Below are positions 24,001 through 30,000 of a DNA stretch of 43,292 bases, one piece after another. Where the stretch lies: contig NZ_MWQY01000028.1 in NCBI RefSeq assembly GCF_002087085.1, positions 1 through 43,292 of the forward strand, written 5' to 3'. A program made the position numbers. Position 1 is the first letter of the stretch; every line of letters begins with the position of its first letter.

Positions 24001-27000
24001 GACAGACCATGGGTGTCTCGGTTTTCACGGACCACCTTATGGAAGCCCTGAGCTTGAGCCGGGTAAACTTGAGCCTTGCATACCTGCTGGGGACGGTGGG
24101 AAGCGCCCTTATCCTTGCTCAGGCGGGTAAGCTCCTGGACCGTGTCGGAGCCCGGCTTATGGGCACAGTGGTTGTTCTGCTCCTGGGGCTGACCCTTTTC
24201 GGAGTTTCCGCCGTCGACGGAATCCGTTCCTTCATCTTCCGGATTTTTCCCTTCGCCGGCGATGTCTTCATCGGTTTTCTGCTTATATCCGGGGGCTTCT
24301 TTTTCATGCGCTTTCTCGGCCAGGGGGTTCTCACCCTCTTGAGCCGAAACATGGCCATGAAGTGGTTTGACCGCCGCAGGGGCCTTGCCAACGCGGTTAT
24401 CGGAATTGTCGTGAGCTTCGGTTTTTCCGCCGCCCCCATGCTGCTCCATTCCCTTATCGAGGATTTCGGGTGGCGCGGAGCCATGCGGGTCATGGGGATG
24501 GTCCTGCTCTTCGGTTTTTCCGGCGTATTTCTTCTCTTCGCACGGGACAATCCCTTTATCTGCGGTTTACGTCCGGACGGATCCCCGGCCCCGGCGGATG
24601 ACGCGGATGATTCCGATCCTTCAACCCGGACCGGTCCCGACTACACCCTGCCGGAGGCAAGAAGAACCCTCACCTTCTGGGTGTATGCCATGTCTCTGGT
24701 CCTTTTCAGTCTGGTAATAACCGCCGTCACCTTCCACATTATCTCCATCTTCGATGAAGCGGGCATGGGAGCGGAAAAAGCAGTCTCGATTTTCCTTCCT
24801 GCGGCGCTGATCTCCCTGGTGTTCAATGTTGGTGCCAGCTGGGCCAGTGACCGGATGCCCCTGAAAATATTTCTCTTTATGCTGCTCGCAGGTCTGCTTA
24901 TTGAACTTGTTGCCGTGGCCCTCTTAAAGGACGGCTTGTTCTTTTTCCTGATGATTCTGGGGCATGGAATAAGCGGCGGGATCATGAATCTTTTAAGTAC
25001 CGTTACCTGGCCACGGTTTTTCGGCATACGACATCTGGGATCAATCTCGGGTTTCGCCATGGGAATGACCGTTGCGGGATCCGCCGCCGGACCCTACCTC
25101 TTCAGTCTGTCCCTTTCACTCTTCGGCAGCTACTCTCCGATATGCTGGGGCTCAGGAATCCTGGGAATGCTGATCCTCGGACTGGCATTTATCGCCAAGC
25201 CGCCGGTAAGAGAGCGGGAAGTTCTCTAGGTTCTGAGTCCTGATAACGCCTTATATCTGAAGCTTGGATATCCTCTCCAGGTACAGGTCCATCTCGAATT
25301 TTCGCTTCAGTCCCTTCGCTCCCATGGGACGGATCTTTCCGAACAGCGGTCGTTCCGGGAAGGGGCGGTCGTGCCTGCCGAAAACCCAGGCGATACCGGT
25401 GTATCCGTTACAGTCCCTGCCGTCGATACTGTAGGTATCGTTCAGTTCGATGAGCAGCCTGTAGGCCTCCCGCCAGTCCGGCATCCACTGAATAAGCCGT
25501 TTTCCCCAGTACATGCGCATATAACCGTGCATCTTTCCGGTAAGCAGGAGTTCCTTCTGTGCTGCGTTCCAGAAGGGGTCGCCGGTCTCCCCTGCGATCA
25601 GCTGCTCCCTGGCGTAGACCTCGGGTCTTTCGTCACCGGCGTGGCTGTCGAGGCTCTCCTGTGCCCAGGCGGGGACGGCATCGGGACTGTCACAGGCCGG
25701 GTTATGCAGACAGAAGTTGATCGCCAGTTCCCGGCGCACAATCAGCTGCTCCAGGAATGCGGCGGCCCCTTCCGTCAGCCGGGGATCATCCCGGGAAGAA
25801 GCCATGACCGCCAGGGCCGCACTTACCGGAGAAAGGTTGCCGAAGTGGAGGTAGGGGGAGAGTTCCGACTGAATATTTAGCCCCGGATCGTTACGGGAAT
25901 CATGATAATGGGAGAGATTCCCGGCGAGAAAATTCTCCAGTCTCTTCCAGGCTTCCCTCTCGCCTCCGGGTACACTCGCAAGAGGTGCTGCTGCCTCTTG
26001 TATGCCGAAGGCAGTCATGTTTTTCAGCACCGATTCCGGTTTTTCCGAATGAAGGGGCCTGAAGGGCAGATCCTTTAATGATTTTCGGGGATTTTTCAAA
26101 TCCGGCAGGGTGCCCACAGGAGCGAGGTAGAGGTCGATAAGGCGGGTGAGCTTCCGCCGCAGGGTCGCGGCGGCATACTCCTCCTTGTCGCTCGCCTGCA
26201 TCGGGGGCACAACAACATCGCTTTCCAGTTGAATCATCGGCCGTGAAAGACTATTGACGATCTCCCGGCGCCATTTTCTTTGTACTGCTGTATAGCCGGT
26301 GTCACAGACCACACAGGCCGCTTCCTTTGCGGCCCGGGGGATCCCTTCCTCCGGATGTGCAAGATCCAGGATAAGAGGTATACCCAGCTTTGCAAGGGAA
26401 GTCTCAAGATCGATCAGACCCTGGAGCAGAAAAGTGAAATGCCGGCTGTTTGCTCCGGGATAGTCCGGCACCAGGCAGAAACAGGCGTAGAGGGGAAGGT
26501 TCATGGTGTTCGCTGTGATGATCGCCGCTGCAAGGGCGTGGTTGTCCCGGACTCTGAGGGCCTGCTGAACCCAGAGAAGGACGAAGCGCGATTTCTGCGG
26601 AGCAGTGCCCGGGCTTATGCGGATTCTGGAACCGAAGATTCTCTTCAGTTCTTCTGTCGGAAGGGACTTCGCGGATGAGGCTACTGCTTTATCTGCGGCA
26701 TTCATGGGCTGTATACCTTATACTGTACAAGCTCTTCGGCAATAAGGAGTCCCTCCGCCAGGGAGCCTGCAACTTTACAGGCGGACAGGTCTTTAAGACC
26801 CTCCCGACCTTCCTCAAAAGCCCTTCCTCCCAGAATAACCGGAATACGGGCAAGCGGTGCTTCCCGGCGCAGCCTGTGGATCAGCAGTTCCCCGGAGTCC
26901 CTGTTTTCGCTGAGGGTGGCGGAGAATGCCAGCAGATCAGGCCGTGCGGAGAGAAGAAGGGATATCAACTGGTCCGTCGGGACCTTGTCTCCCAGAAAAA

Positions 27001-30000
27001 ATGCCCGCCAGCCGGCCTGCTCCAGCAGGTCCCGGAGCATCCTGATTCCGATGCTGTGACTCTCTCCCGGAACGGTGGCACAGATGCACAGTTTGTCCGA
27101 TGGCGGAACCCCGGGGTAACAGGTCCGCAGACGCTCCATGAATCCTTCCACGGCGTGGCTGATTATATGCTCCTCCGCTACTGAAATACTGCCTTCGGCC
27201 CAGAGTTCCCCTGTCATGATCAGGAGAGGTTCCAGACTGCGGAGATAGATTTCCTTCATGGGGACACCGGATTTAACTGACCGCTCCACCTTTTCCCAGG
27301 CTTCCAGATCCCTGCCTCCCAGGATTGAGCTGATCATCTCCTTTGGGGAGAGGGGCTTTTCTGGATCTCGTCTTTCAGAATCCGGGATGGCATCTGTGTT
27401 TGCCCGGACTCCCAGTATCCTGTCCAGGGATGCGTCGAAGAGCTCCGCCAGGGCCACGAGTTTCTGCTGGTCCGGAAAACGGCTGTTATTTTCATAGTTG
27501 GCTATGGTTGTCTGTCCTACTCCCAATACCTGGGCAACCTGCTTCTGACTCATTCTGTTTTTTTTGCGGTAGTACCGCAGCCACTGACCGAATTGCTGTT
27601 CCATATAAGCTCCGAAGGATAAATTAACACAAAATGTGAAAGAGTGTCAAAAAATATCTTGCTTCATGGCATAATGTAATATATTTTTTTTATATGGCTT
27701 TGAAGAAAACTCCAGGAATACTTTTTCCGTCTCTGCTGCTGCTCATACTGCTCTCGGGGTGCCGGGGCCGGGACTCGGTATCCGGTGCAACCTGGGTTCC
27801 TGGTACCGGCGAAAATCCATCACCGGCGGTTGAGGTTGTTTCCGTGGAACAGGGAAAACTCTACAACACCATAGGTTCCACCGGGACCGTGCGGGGCAGG
27901 AATGAGGCTCGCATAGTGACCACAAGCCAGGGAATGGTCATGTCTTTTCCGGTGCGTCTTGGTCAGGAGGTCGGGGAAGGAGATGTGATTCTCCGTCTGG
28001 ATGACGAACTGGCCTCCTATGCAGCGGAGCAGGCACGGACAGGGTGGGAGATTGCCAGGGCAGATCTGGAGGTTCTGAGTTCCCTGTATGAGCGGGGAAA
28101 CGCTTCCCGGGTCGATCTGGAACGGGCCAGAAGCAGTGAACGCGGCGCCCGGGCTGCCTATGACCAGAGTCTCAGAATTCTGGAAGACCGAACAGTCCGA
28201 AGCCCCATGAACGGCCATATAATCTGGATTGATGAGAACGCTTCTCCCGGAAACTATCTGAATACCGGCAGCATGATCGCGCTGGTGGCGGATATTTCGG
28301 GTTTTACGATGATACTTGAACTTGGTGAACGACAGATAGGGCTTGTCGGACCCGGGGCCGGAGCGGAAATTCATGTGCAGGCTGCAGGAACGTCGTCCTT
28401 TTCTGGTACAGTGGAGGCAGTGGCGGCAGGAAGCGGCGGTACAACGGCAACGTATCAGGTGGAGCTCTCCTTTTCGGCTCCTTCGGATTCCGGTATTAAA
28501 CCGGGAATGGCCGCCCGGGTTGTGGTGGAAACCAGCCTTGAGAAGGAGGCTCTCCTTGTTCCAGGCATTGCGCTTCTTAAGGGGAGTGAAGAACGTAATG
28601 AGGTATTCTTACTTCGCGACGGATATGCCCGTCTTGTTCCCGTGGAGGTCCTTGACCGGCACGGGGATTTTGCGGCCGTCGGATCCGGTCTGAAAGACGG
28701 GGACCGGGTAATAGTATCAGGAACCCGGCGGCTTATGGACGGAGACCCGGTCAGGGCGACGGAGGTCAGTCTTGTCCGGGAAGGGATGCAGAACAGATGA
28801 ACCTGGGATCCTTCTCGGTCAGGAATCACGTCCTGGTGAATATTCTCATGTTTGCCCTGCTGGTGCTGAGTCTTTTAAGTCTCCAGCGCATGCCCAGGGA
28901 GCAGTTCTCAGAGGTACCCTTCTTCTGGGTTACCATAAGCGTACCCTATCCGGGGGCCAGCCCTGAGGATATCGAACGATCTGTCACGATCAAAATTGAA
29001 AATGTGATGCAGGGGCTCAAAAGCCTTAAATCCGTCAGCTCCGTAAGCAGTGAAGGGCTTTCCCGGGTCCGGGTGGAGTTTGAGGACGGAATCGATGCGG
29101 ATGAGTTTGCCCGCCTTTTCCAGGAGACCAGGACACGATTCTCATCAGTGGAGCTTCCCGAGGGGACCCTGGAAGCGCAGCTTGACGATTTTTCCGCGGC
29201 TGATTTTCTACCTGTTATCGAAGTTGTACTCTCGGGCAATGTGGATTACCAGCTTCTCAGCTCTTCCGCAAATGAGCTCGAGGATCTCCTGGAAGGAATC
29301 CCGGAGGTGGCGGAGATTACCTCTGTAGGGTCCCGGGAACGCCGCATCCACGTGGATGTACTGCGGGCGAGCAGCGAGTCCCTGGGAGTCTCTCTCGGGG
29401 AGATTGCCGATACCATAAACGGGGTGAATCTGTCGATTCCGGCGGGTACGGCGTCTACGGCCAACCGTGAGTATATCGTCAGAACCCAGGGGGATACCAC
29501 GGACGTCACGGGAATTTCCGAGCTCGCGATCCACCGGGACTCCTCCGGATTGCAGAGAAGTATCCGGGTCGGTGATCTGGCCGGGGTTTCCGAAGGCTTC
29601 GAAGAATCGGGGATTCAGGCCCGCTTTAACGGACGCCAGGCGATAATCCTGAGGGTGGCCAAGGTAAGCGGGGGTGATTCCGCGGAGCTTGTTTCCGGGG
29701 TCAGAGAAGTGATCTCCCGCTTCAGCCGCTACATTCCCGTGGGAATACAGGTGGATACCTTCGGCGATTCCACGGTACAGATTCGCAACAGCATCGATGT
29801 ATTAAGCAGTAATGCCCTCTTCGGCCTCTTTCTGCTGACGCTGATTCTCTTTCTTTTTGTGGGTCTCAGGAACGCCCTTATTACCGGCCTGGGAATACCT
29901 GTCTCCTTTGCCATTACCCTGATTGTACTGGAGCTCAGCGGGCAGACCATAAATACCAACACCTTGTTCGGTCTGGTTCTGGTCCTGGGGCTGATCGTGG

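Follow-up and report, generated by a model that had tools for sequence, protein, structure and literature searches.

An XRE-type regulator with a CarH-like cobalamin-binding module, read just before a photolyase gene: a candidate light-released repressor in a spirochaete

To our knowledge, all gene regulators linked until now with B12 light sensing have MerR-type heads (LitR/CarH classes I-V), and a regulator in which a CarH-like module follows a different DNA-binding head raises the question of what it senses and which genes it controls. Such a regulator is encoded in the window analysed here, the 43,292 nucleotides of contig NZ_MWQY01000028.1, where the initial annotation described an XRE helix-turn-helix (HTH) joined to a CarH-like cobalamin module, overlapping a photolyase gene by 4 nt and predicted to act as a light switch for photoreactivation. 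Our computational analysis bore out both the architecture and the overlap, with the following features at the core of the locus:

25251 to 26705, minus strand: class II-type DNA photolyase gene (ORF, 484 aa; Pfam DNA_photolyase, 2e-25)
26702 to 27604, minus strand: regulator gene with an XRE-HTH and a cobalamin-binding domain (CBD) (ORF, 300 aa; Pfam domains)
26798 to 27088, minus strand: Rossmann cobalamin-binding subdomain, residues 173-269, with E181-x-H183-xx-G186...S228-x-T230...G259-G260 (Pfam B12-binding)
27128 to 27337, minus strand: four-helix bundle, residues 90-159, with G132-x-x-W135-x9-E145-H146 (Pfam B12-binding_2)
27422 to 27580, minus strand: XRE/Cro-C1 helix-turn-helix, residues 9-61 (Pfam HTH_3)

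The head of the regulator matched HTH_3 at residues 9-61 (1e-13) with 51.6 bits against a Pfam gathering score of 23, which places it in the XRE (Cro/C1) family, and also matched HTH_19 and HTH_31; the Pfam search found no MerR model, the winged helix of CarH/LitR, in the protein. PDB matches of the head by sequence were ImmR (7t8i), P22 C2 and HipB. XRE repressors such as P22 C2, ICEBs1 ImmR (7T8I), SinR and HipB share the HTH_3 head, palindromic operators and autoregulation through a site at their own promoter, but all of them lack a cobalamin-binding sensor domain, which the regulator carries as B12-binding_2 (residues 90-159, 1e-8) and B12-binding (residues 173-269, 1.8e-14). An AlphaFold model of the protein gave a pLDDT of 83.9, in agreement with the value of about 84 reported before, and a pTM of 0.69.

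This combination is common rather than rare. The earlier count of only 16 XRE+B12 proteins proved to be an artefact of a word index (15 on repeat), and in an exhaustive search over representatives of clusters at 50% identity, 143 of the best 150 were XRE-HTH+CBD proteins, so that the family comprises at least 143 clusters at that level. Both B12 domains were present in all 144 family members and HTH_3 in 142, with a weak MerR match in one. In the 401 Spirochaetia genomes we counted 51 full-length matches (query start at or before residue 10). They come from 47 genomes, close to the 40 or so given previously, and all five other members of the genus are among these. The recognition helix, Q31-T-T-I-A-N-Y-E38, was nearly invariant, with Q31, N36, Y37 and E38 at least 90% conserved in the 144 sequences. 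Our literature search found no published experiment on any family member.

In CarH, the counterpart of G132-x-x-W135-x9-E145-H146 forms the cap over the upper ligand. Across the 144 sequences G132, W135, E145 and H183 were invariant and H146, G205, P209, S228 and G259-G260 were at least 90% conserved; W135-x9-E145-H146, E181-x-H183-xx-G186 and G259 G260, described at the outset as invariant, were indeed so in 16 aligned sequences. The W135-x9-E145-H146 of the regulator matches Wx9EH, the cap motif that passages of PMC8156234 give as defining AdoCbl-binding CarH homologues, and its Rossmann motif, in full ExHxxG-x41-SxT-x28-GG, follows the CarH/LitR pattern ExHx2G-x41-SxV/T-x22-27-GG with a last spacer one residue over the quoted range. 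Three of the SignatureFinder motifs for light-responsive CBDs (GxxW, EH, GxxH and GxxxP in passages of PMC11796333) were found as G132-E-L-W135, E145-H146 and G180-E-S-H183, and G205-D-K-V-P209 (GxxxP) comes after the regulator's His, although those passages put all motifs within TtCarH 128-177. Ala136 takes the position, next to the Trp, of the His that becomes the upper ligand in light-state TtCarH (passages of PMC8156234). The curated NCBIfam CarH equivalog model NF052513 gave the regulator 50.4 bits, where its cut-off is 400, and covered the CBD alone, and the MtgC model came near to it at 49.2 bits.

By sequence, the closest solved relatives were AdoCbl photoreceptor domains, namely CtMerR (8JBS; 1.1e-18 with the regulator as a single sequence) and the photocobilins. 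The family profile matched CtMerR (8jbs) at 6.7e-31 and photocobilins at 6e-30 (8j2x/8j2w) and 5.5e-26 (8j2y), as compared with 1e-22 to 5e-18 for corrinoid proteins, about 1e-16 for MetH and TtCarH (TtCarH 9e-17) and 3.8e-8 for AerR. Structure comparison, previously offered as evidence for a light sensor, was not specific, with methionine synthase (9cbo) at Foldseek rank 1, level with photocobilin 8j2w and CarH 5c8d. Fold and curated models do not split the regulator from enzyme or corrinoid CBDs, and it is the sequence comparison, not the fold, that appears to group its module with proven light sensors.

In its general plan the regulator resembles the class I CarH/LitR proteins of Thermus thermophilus, Myxococcus xanthus and Bacillus megaterium, which likewise have a DNA-binding head at the N-terminus, a disordered linker and a C-terminal AdoCbl-type module built of a bundle of four helices and a Rossmann subdomain with Wx9EH and ExHxxG...SxT...GG, together with an operator over the promoter and photoprotection genes as targets (both predicted here). 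It differs from them in its XRE/Cro-C1 (HTH_3) head, in place of a MerR winged helix, and in its predicted operator, an inverted repeat CAC-N5-GTG, often in phased pairs, where theirs consists of 11-bp direct repeats (nAnnTnnACAn), three or four in tandem; TtCarH is also no closer than MetH by profile. CtMerR of Chloracidobacterium thermophilum (8JBS/8JBT), considered here together with the 'Group 2' light-responsive CBDs of SignatureFinder, shares GxxW, EH and GxxH with the regulator but has a MerR-type head, and only its isolated CBD has been studied. The CBD of the photocobilins/photoglobins (8J2W, 8J2X, 8J2Y) is of one lineage with the regulator's, but these proteins have a bilin/globin-like or GGDEF partner domain and lack a DNA-binding head. 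A globin-like+CBD protein is also encoded in the regulator's genome, beside a histidine kinase.

The ATG of the photolyase gene overlaps the regulator stop codon (ATGA). The predicted photolyase matched TIGR00591 (phr2) over its full length (2.3e-133) with 445.8 bits, under the cut-off of 550, and among Pfam models DNA_photolyase reached 90 bits, over its cut-off, and FAD_binding_7 20.2 bits, under 27. It is the single PF00875 match in the genome, and thus no second photolyase was found there. Photolyase activity is itself light-dependent, and with the regulator read just before it, the gene is probably switched on in light. Both genes are represented in part among contigs of marine-sediment RNA libraries, and one contig spans the junction (26619-26794); this is weak support because these are contigs only and DNA carry-over is possible. 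Photolyase, RudS and carotenoid genes are known LitR/CarH targets in passages of PMC11417400 and PMC9758184. The class II LitR operon phrB-litR-rudS of Pseudomonas similarly has regulator and photolyase in one operon, but this LitR is MerR-type, retains the helix bundle only, binds no B12 and relies on a LOV protein; RudS-type genes adjoin the photolyase in three XRE-CBD loci (L139, L140, L143).

Upstream of the regulator gene, and at one more distant place, we located the following:

27621 to 27650, minus strand: inferred promoter of the regulator-photolyase operon, with -35 TTGACA (27650-27645) and a TG-n-TAATTT extended -10 (27629-27621)
27628 to 27638, no strand: predicted operator 1, palindrome CACATTTTGTG (minus-strand reading), CAC-N5-GTG, overlapping the extended -10
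27668 to 27678, no strand: degenerate second site TACATTATGCC, towards the divergent promoter, its centre 40 bp from that of operator 1
27694 to 31913, plus strand: divergent operon of an HlyD-type membrane-fusion lipoprotein (27694-28800) and an RND permease (28797-31913) (ORFs; Pfam HlyD_D23, HlyD_3)
20136 to 20154, no strand: possible further operator-like site ATATTACAATTTGTGTTAA, second-best genome-wide matrix match (20.1)

A consensus promoter scan missed the inferred promoter because its -10 matches at only three of six positions; a GGAG lies downstream of it at 27613-27610. Predicted operator 1 was the top match in the whole 4.2-Mb genome (score 21.6) for a matrix that leaves out its own genus and rests on 23 sites in other genera. 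The second site is weak, since its own matrix score is below 9, and it aligns with the weaker second site (12.8) of the relative genome G003. CAC-N5-GTG occurred upstream of 20 of 51 family members (28 sites; mean 0.8 and maximum 5 in 200 shuffles), at a density of 3.77 per kb upstream of regulators versus 0.086 per kb elsewhere in those loci, and in the same 51 regions the N4 spacing occurred once and N6 never. Where two sites were present, 13 of 15 regions had them 40-42 or 49-52 bp apart. The recognition helix has Q-T/S in 20/20 CAC-type regions and Q-V in 6/6 AAC-N5-GTT regions, a correspondence that reflects a single tree split. A strong site (21.8) is found at the head of a crtI-regulator-crtI operon in the relative genome G005. 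The extended -10 takes up half of the palindrome, whose conservation may therefore be due in part to that of the promoter; its predicted position over the -10 would be the geometry of a repressor. A regulon could not be called genome-wide because locally shuffled genomes yield 0-2 matches of at least 19, and the ATATTACAATTTGTGTTAA site, which sits between a REC-HD response-regulator gene (18903-20129, minus strand) and a PAS histidine-kinase gene (20208-22082, plus strand) and is identical in the relative genome G004, may be a chance match.

We lean towards the view that the regulator is a repressor that is cobalamin-bound in the dark and that light releases; it would act on its own photolyase operon and probably also on the divergent efflux operon. 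In the dark, its C-terminal module would hold scavenged adenosylcobalamin, with His183 as lower ligand and W135, E145 and H146 as the cap over the upper ligand, and would oligomerise, a dimer of dimers being probable. As pairs, the HTH heads would then occupy the CAC-N5-GTG palindrome lying over the regulator's own -10, 40 bp from the weaker site by the back-to-back HlyD/RND promoter, and this would silence the regulator-photolyase operon and, probably, the efflux operon as well. Light would cleave the Co-C bond, the oligomer would fall apart and repression would be lifted, and photolyase would then be made only in the presence of light.

The supply of cofactor bears directly on this proposal. 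In line with the initial annotation, no cobalamin synthesis was found in the 97%-complete genome, with no PduO-type or CobA-type adenosyltransferase, CobS, CbiB or CbiC, and no PduO/CobA adenosyltransferase was found in its two closest relatives (G002, G004), which are also without B12 synthesis; an adenosyltransferase was present in six of nine XRE-CBD genomes of a 41-genome set. The cobalamin users found in the genome are of the methyl-transfer or radical-SAM kind, and none of those found is an AdoCbl-dependent mutase carrying a B12-binding domain. The cell can plausibly take up B12, since one cobalamin riboswitch precedes a TonB-dependent receptor and a TonB gene, and because the genome lacks B12 synthesis and adenosyltransferase, yet has this riboswitch-controlled receptor, the cofactor must be scavenged. 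That adenosylcobalamin cannot be made here, and that the other cobalamin users are as described, would also suit a light sensor not of the CarH type, which might use methyl- or hydroxocobalamin (as AerR), work as a dimer instead of a tetramer or be an activator; Ala136 in place of the light-state His and the photocobilins, equally close by profile and unchanged in oligomer state without biliverdin (passages of PMC11796333), point the same way. We nevertheless regard such a sensor as unlikely, since the Wx9EH cap, the mark of CarH homologues that bind AdoCbl, varies little or not at all, the predicted operator has repressor geometry, AerR is distant by profile and in CtMerR, the closest relative, the CBD is an AdoCbl-binding tetramer that green light photolyses and turns into a monomer (passages of PMC11796333).

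Neighbouring genes were counted within three ORFs on either side of the regulator at 49 loci, with the caution that related genomes are not independent. The divergent HlyD/RND operon, on which the initial annotation was silent, was the commonest neighbour (23/49). Photolyase was near the regulator in 10 loci and absent from 39, so that the linkage stands but not the frequency of 7 in 12 loci first given for it; photolyase-linked regulators are spread over at least four separate clades. Carotenoid or isoprenoid genes were found in eight loci, a DUF1295/lipocalin cluster in six and a tocopherol-cyclase-like gene in three, with a pyrimidine-dimer glycosylase in L025 and a phytoene synthase in L032, and no B12 metabolism or transport gene was seen beside the regulator in the 49 loci. 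The regulon is probably wider than photoreactivation because no neighbour is more conserved than the divergent RND efflux operon, which has its control region in common with the regulator. The reading as a light switch for photoreactivation finds support for its core, a CarH-like cobalamin photoreceptor-regulator co-transcribed with a photolyase, in motifs, relatives, predicted operator and neighbours, but its scope was drawn too narrowly.

We know of no light role for the RND pump, and this, together with the B12 auxotrophy of the organism and the occurrence of the CBD fold in non-photoreceptor proteins, could speak for a sensor that works in the dark, reporting cobalamin supply or redox state and tuning the pump and neighbouring genes. 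Such a function seems distinctly improbable, given that B12 uptake is already riboswitch-controlled, that the 49 loci show photolyase, UV glycosylase and carotenoid genes and none for B12 metabolism or transport, and that the family conserves the signature motifs of a light response. It is very improbable that the protein is just an autoregulating XRE repressor of the usual kind, with a cofactor-free B12-like domain serving oligomerisation only, as in B12-independent CarA: such paralogues exist and the genome has no adenosyltransferase, but CarA lacks Wx9EH (passages of PMC8156234), and the conservation of this motif and of the lower-ligand His across 144 sequences argues for selection on cofactor binding.

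Beyond the light-released repressor favoured at this locus, we tentatively suggest, as a possibility, that XRE-CBD proteins form a distinct and widespread class of B12 photoreceptor-repressors in sediment bacteria of the Spirochaetia and Clostridia type. Their palindromic operators would be paired at a distance of four or five helical turns, a CBD tetramer that light breaks up would bridge two HTH dimers and loop the DNA between back-to-back promoters, and the core targets would be the RND pump, photolyase and carotenoid genes; in the present lineage, because it has no adenosyltransferase, the switch would run on scavenged adenosylcobalamin or another upper ligand. A large family with the light module on an XRE head would show that nature uses this module as a portable switch, would offer green-light optogenetics a second operator logic, a palindromic one, and would extend light-regulated photoprotection to sediment spirochaetes and clostridia unable to make B12; its recurrent link with the RND pump would point to an export function induced by light.

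The regulator gene and the photolyase gene lie head to tail on the minus strand, with the photolyase ATG on the regulator stop codon in an ATGA overlap, and the open reading frames, the Pfam matches and a motif scan agree with the initial annotation of an XRE helix-turn-helix joined to B12 domains and overlapping the photolyase gene by 4 nt. The features of the locus are as follows.

26702..27604, minus strand: regulator, 300 aa
regulator residues 9-61: HTH_3 (Pfam, 1e-13)
regulator residues 90-159: B12-binding_2 (Pfam, 1e-8)
regulator residues 173-269: B12-binding (Pfam, 1.8e-14)
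25251..26705, minus strand: photolyase, 484 aa
27638-27628: predicted operator 1, CACATTTTGTG, a CAC-N5-GTG palindrome
27650-27645: putative -35 element
27678-27668: degenerate partner site, TACATTATGCC, 40 bp from operator 1

The 484-aa protein contains a DNA_photolyase domain (Pfam, 2e-25) and gives a full-length match to the class II model TIGR00591 (2e-133), at 445.8 bits against a cut-off of 550; its gene is the sole photolyase gene found in the source genome, G000. In the regulator, the helix bundle carries G132-x-x-W135-x9-E145-H146 and the Rossmann portion E181-x-H183-xx-G186, x41, S228-x-T230, x28, G259-G260. CarH homologues are defined, in the review PMC8156234, by Wx9EH and ExHx2Gx41SxV/Tx22-27GG; compared with that motif, the final spacer of the regulator (x28) is one residue longer. 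The AlphaFold model (pLDDT 83.9, pTM 0.69) joins the DNA-binding head to the sensor through a disordered linker at residues 67-80.

Fold comparison had been taken in the initial annotation as pointing to a CarH-type light sensor, but the fold matches are not specific. Foldseek did not tell photoreceptor cobalamin-binding domains (CBDs) apart from enzymatic ones when searched with the regulator model: methionine synthase 9cbo ranked first, level with photocobilin 8j2w, CarH 5c8d and the MerR-type protein of Chloracidobacterium thermophilum (CtMerR) 8jbs, all at about 1e-11. Sequence comparison did settle the type of CBD. The best PDB chain in a single-sequence search was the CtMerR CBD 8jbs (1.1e-18; MetH, 6.5e-6), and a profile of the family ranked CtMerR first (6.7e-31), followed by photocobilins 8j2x/8j2w (6e-30), 8j2y (5.5e-26), corrinoid proteins (1e-22 to 5e-18), MetH (7.6e-17) and Thermus thermophilus CarH (9e-17). 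Adenosylcobalamin binding and green-light photolysis in vitro are described for the four top chains in PMC11796333. Thus the regulator CBD is grouped on sequence grounds with the 'Group 2' light-responsive CBDs and not with canonical CarH; the NCBIfam CarH model scored 50 bits against the regulator, with a cut-off of 400.

The apparent rarity of XRE+B12 proteins proved to be an artefact of the search method. A word-indexed search returned 20 proteins, 15 of them with XRE and B12 Pfam matches (one of the 15, P0016, has the reversed order, with the CBD first and the XRE HTH at the C-terminus), whereas an exhaustive HMMER search across 1.84 billion cluster representatives yielded 17,827 matches at E<=1e-3, of which 112 reached E<=1e-30. 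Among the best 150 of these 17,827 matches, 143 were proteins of about 260-345 aa with one XRE HTH at the N-terminus and the CBD after it, and Wx9EH was present in 139 of the 143. With the regulator added, both B12 domains were detected in 144/144 and HTH_3 in 142/144; R42, G132, W135, E145 and H183 were invariant in the alignment of 144, and Q31, N36, Y37, E38, H146, G205, P209, S228, G259 and G260 were at least 90% conserved. Source names were generic, such as 'cobalamin B12-binding domain-containing protein' (Vallitaleaceae bacterium) and 'helix-turn-helix domain-containing protein' (Fusibacter species), and a true XRE-CBD locus was present in a Bacillota metagenome-assembled genome (L035). 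Three further loci (L038, L062 and L069) were dropped, as their matches look full-length but have other N-terminal domains, phycobilisome-like in L038. With these counts and the Vallitaleaceae, Fusibacter and Bacillota members, the XRE-CBD family is common and extends beyond the spirochaetes.

Within the Spirochaetia, 88 of 401 genomes had a match to the regulator at E<=1e-15, and by our own count matches starting at or before residue 10 occurred at 51 places in 47 of the 401. Neighbours within three ORFs of the regulator in either direction, from our own simple ORF picks, were surveyed at 49 loci with 50 regulator genes, one place (G342:C177) being left out. HlyD/RND(-OEP) efflux genes were the most frequent, at 23/49 loci; they were mostly divergent from the regulator, and lay downstream on the same strand in L132, L137, L139, L140 and L143. 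Photolyase genes were found at 10 loci (the source locus, four others of the genus Marispirochaeta, L112, L113, L139, L140 and L143), accompanied in the last three by a TudS-DUF1722 (RudS-type) gene. CrtI-like desaturase, polyprenyl synthase, HMG-CoA synthase or mevalonate genes occurred at eight loci, a DUF1295/lipocalin/FakA/PlsY cluster at six and a tocopherol-cyclase-like gene at three; at ten there was nothing suggestive or the contig was too short. Phytoene synthase is convergent with the regulator in L032 and L033, and in L025 (genome G036, 7998-9905) two tandem XRE-CBD genes adjoin a divergent pyrimidine-dimer DNA glycosylase gene (Pyr_excise). When 52 regulators were placed on a tree, those linked to photolyase occupied four or more distinct positions with good support. 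According to PMC11417400 and PMC9758184, the light regulon known for LitR/CarH proteins of the MerR type consists of photolyase, RudS and carotenoid genes.

Several other arrangements were seen at these loci. The tocopherol-cyclase-like gene lies directly 3' of the regulator in L026, L112 and L117, which belong to different genera, and in L025 a fatty-acid-desaturase-family gene and a 733-aa amine-oxidase-family gene are close by. A MerR+B12 gene of the true CarH type stands two genes from an XRE-CBD gene in L144 (G265, 4144-5058), and this locus therefore has both kinds. The RND gene of L022 (G002, 5002-7059) matches the RND protein of the window in pieces only (residues 1-314, 639-959 and 961-1038) and may be broken or rearranged. 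In the window itself, an 89-aa Cys-rich ORF at 23566-23835, with no Pfam match, overlaps the end of a TrpB-like gene and has conserved counterparts in G004 and G002 (about 80%) and, at 45%, in G001.

Alignment of the control regions of five genomes of the genus revealed a block, TTCACAnnnTGTGTTAnnTT, just 5' of the start codon, with a TTGACA -35 in three of the five. More widely, CAC-N5-GTG was present in 20 of 51 upstream regions (28 sites), against a chance expectation of 0.8 regions on average and 5 at most in 200 mononucleotide shuffles; the same half-sites occurred once at a spacing of N4 and never at N6. Its density was 3.77 per kb over the 147 nt 5' of the regulators; elsewhere in these loci it was 0.086 per kb, and at AT-rich positions 0.093 per kb. 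The proximal site lies 17-34 nt before the ATG, its right half running into a TG-n-TAnnnT extended -10. Of the 15 regions with two sites, 13 have a centre-to-centre spacing of 40-42 or 49-52 bp, roughly four or five turns of the helix. One deep clade has AAC-N5-GTT instead, and the recognition helix begins with Q-V in 6/6 of its regulators and with Q-T or Q-S in 20/20 of the CAC type; this covariation counts as one event because it reflects a single split of the tree.

A matrix built from 23 sites of other genera and scanned over the whole 4.2-Mb genome found its best match at window 27624-27642 (score 21.6). Two matches reached 19 or more in G000, against 0-2 in locally shuffled genomes, so no regulon was called, and only the match at 27624-27642, which stands at the expected place, is convincing. 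The degenerate site at 27678-27668 adjoins the promoter of the divergent HlyD/RND operon (ATG at 27694). The position of the putative regulator promoter was read by eye from the genus alignment, a consensus promoter scan of 25000-28000 having found none; transcription is predicted to begin near 27614-27617. A strong site (21.8) stands at the head of a crtI-regulator-crtI operon in G005. The second-best match in G000 (20.1) is ATATTACAATTTGTGTTAA at window 20136-20154, in the gap separating two divergent genes that encode a REC-HD response regulator and a PAS histidine kinase; G004 has the identical site, none was found in G002, and the match could be due to chance. Weaker matches on contigs C75, C65, C45, C1 and C6 were set aside as possible chance. 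G000 also has a carotenoid-type cluster with two CrtI-like genes and a phytoene/squalene synthase gene (C12:163751-168345), and no operator-like site scoring 7 or more was found within 158-172 kb of that contig.

Marine-sediment RNA libraries gave contigs of 95-99% identity that cover the junction of the two genes (26619-26794) and parts of each, at 26086-26485 for photolyase and, piecewise, at 26989-27617 for the regulator; the HlyD/RND genes were also partly covered. Because these data are contigs, they do not allow strand, transcript starts or DNA carry-over to be assessed, and stretches lacking cover (e.g. 25192-26061) are uninformative on expression.

Cofactor supply bears on how such a switch would work. 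No PduO-type or CobA-type adenosyltransferase and no CobS, CbiB or CbiC was found in G000 (97% complete), whose sole cobalamin riboswitch (C1:103852-103967) precedes genes for a TonB-dependent receptor, TonB and a D-Ala-D-Ala carboxypeptidase. Among the nine XRE-CBD genomes of a 41-genome set, six have an adenosyltransferase, of the PduO type in G001, G003, G005, G028 and G036 and of the CobA type in G007 and G028; neither type was found in G000, G002 and G004. Since recognised adenosyltransferase and B12 synthesis genes are lacking in G000, the switch there must use imported adenosylcobalamin or another form. The B12-binding-domain proteins of this genome are a corrinoid protein, two B12-radical-SAM proteins, the regulator, a globin-like+CBD protein and a 1132-aa frame that we take to be a putative methionine synthase. 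The globin-like protein (C34:150470-151522, 350 aa) combines a globin/phycobilisome-like domain with a CBD bearing W190-x9-E200-H201 and E236-x-H238-xx-G, is followed directly by a histidine-kinase gene, and is a second candidate B12 photoreceptor of G000.

On balance, we lean towards reading the regulator as a cobalamin-dependent repressor that would be released by light, acting on its own regulator-photolyase operon and probably on the divergent efflux operon too. It would be CarH-like in its working and carries both CarH cofactor motifs, but CarH has a MerR head and a direct-repeat operator and the regulator has neither; for these reasons, and by its score against the curated model, it stands outside the CarH family. 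The literature searched defines LitR/CarH proteins as MerR-type, in classes I-V, and no description of an XRE-type CarH/LitR was found in it; the two texts containing both 'CarH' and 'XRE' were a Myxococcaceae signalling survey, which only lists them, and a review on B12 that uses the two terms in unrelated contexts. PMC11796333 reports 'HTH' output domains among 1561 signature-bearing CBDs (SignatureFinder), and may already list the XRE-CBD architecture. The regulator is thus a real feature, belonging to a family more ordinary in abundance than first thought, and it now has a predicted operator that can be tested.
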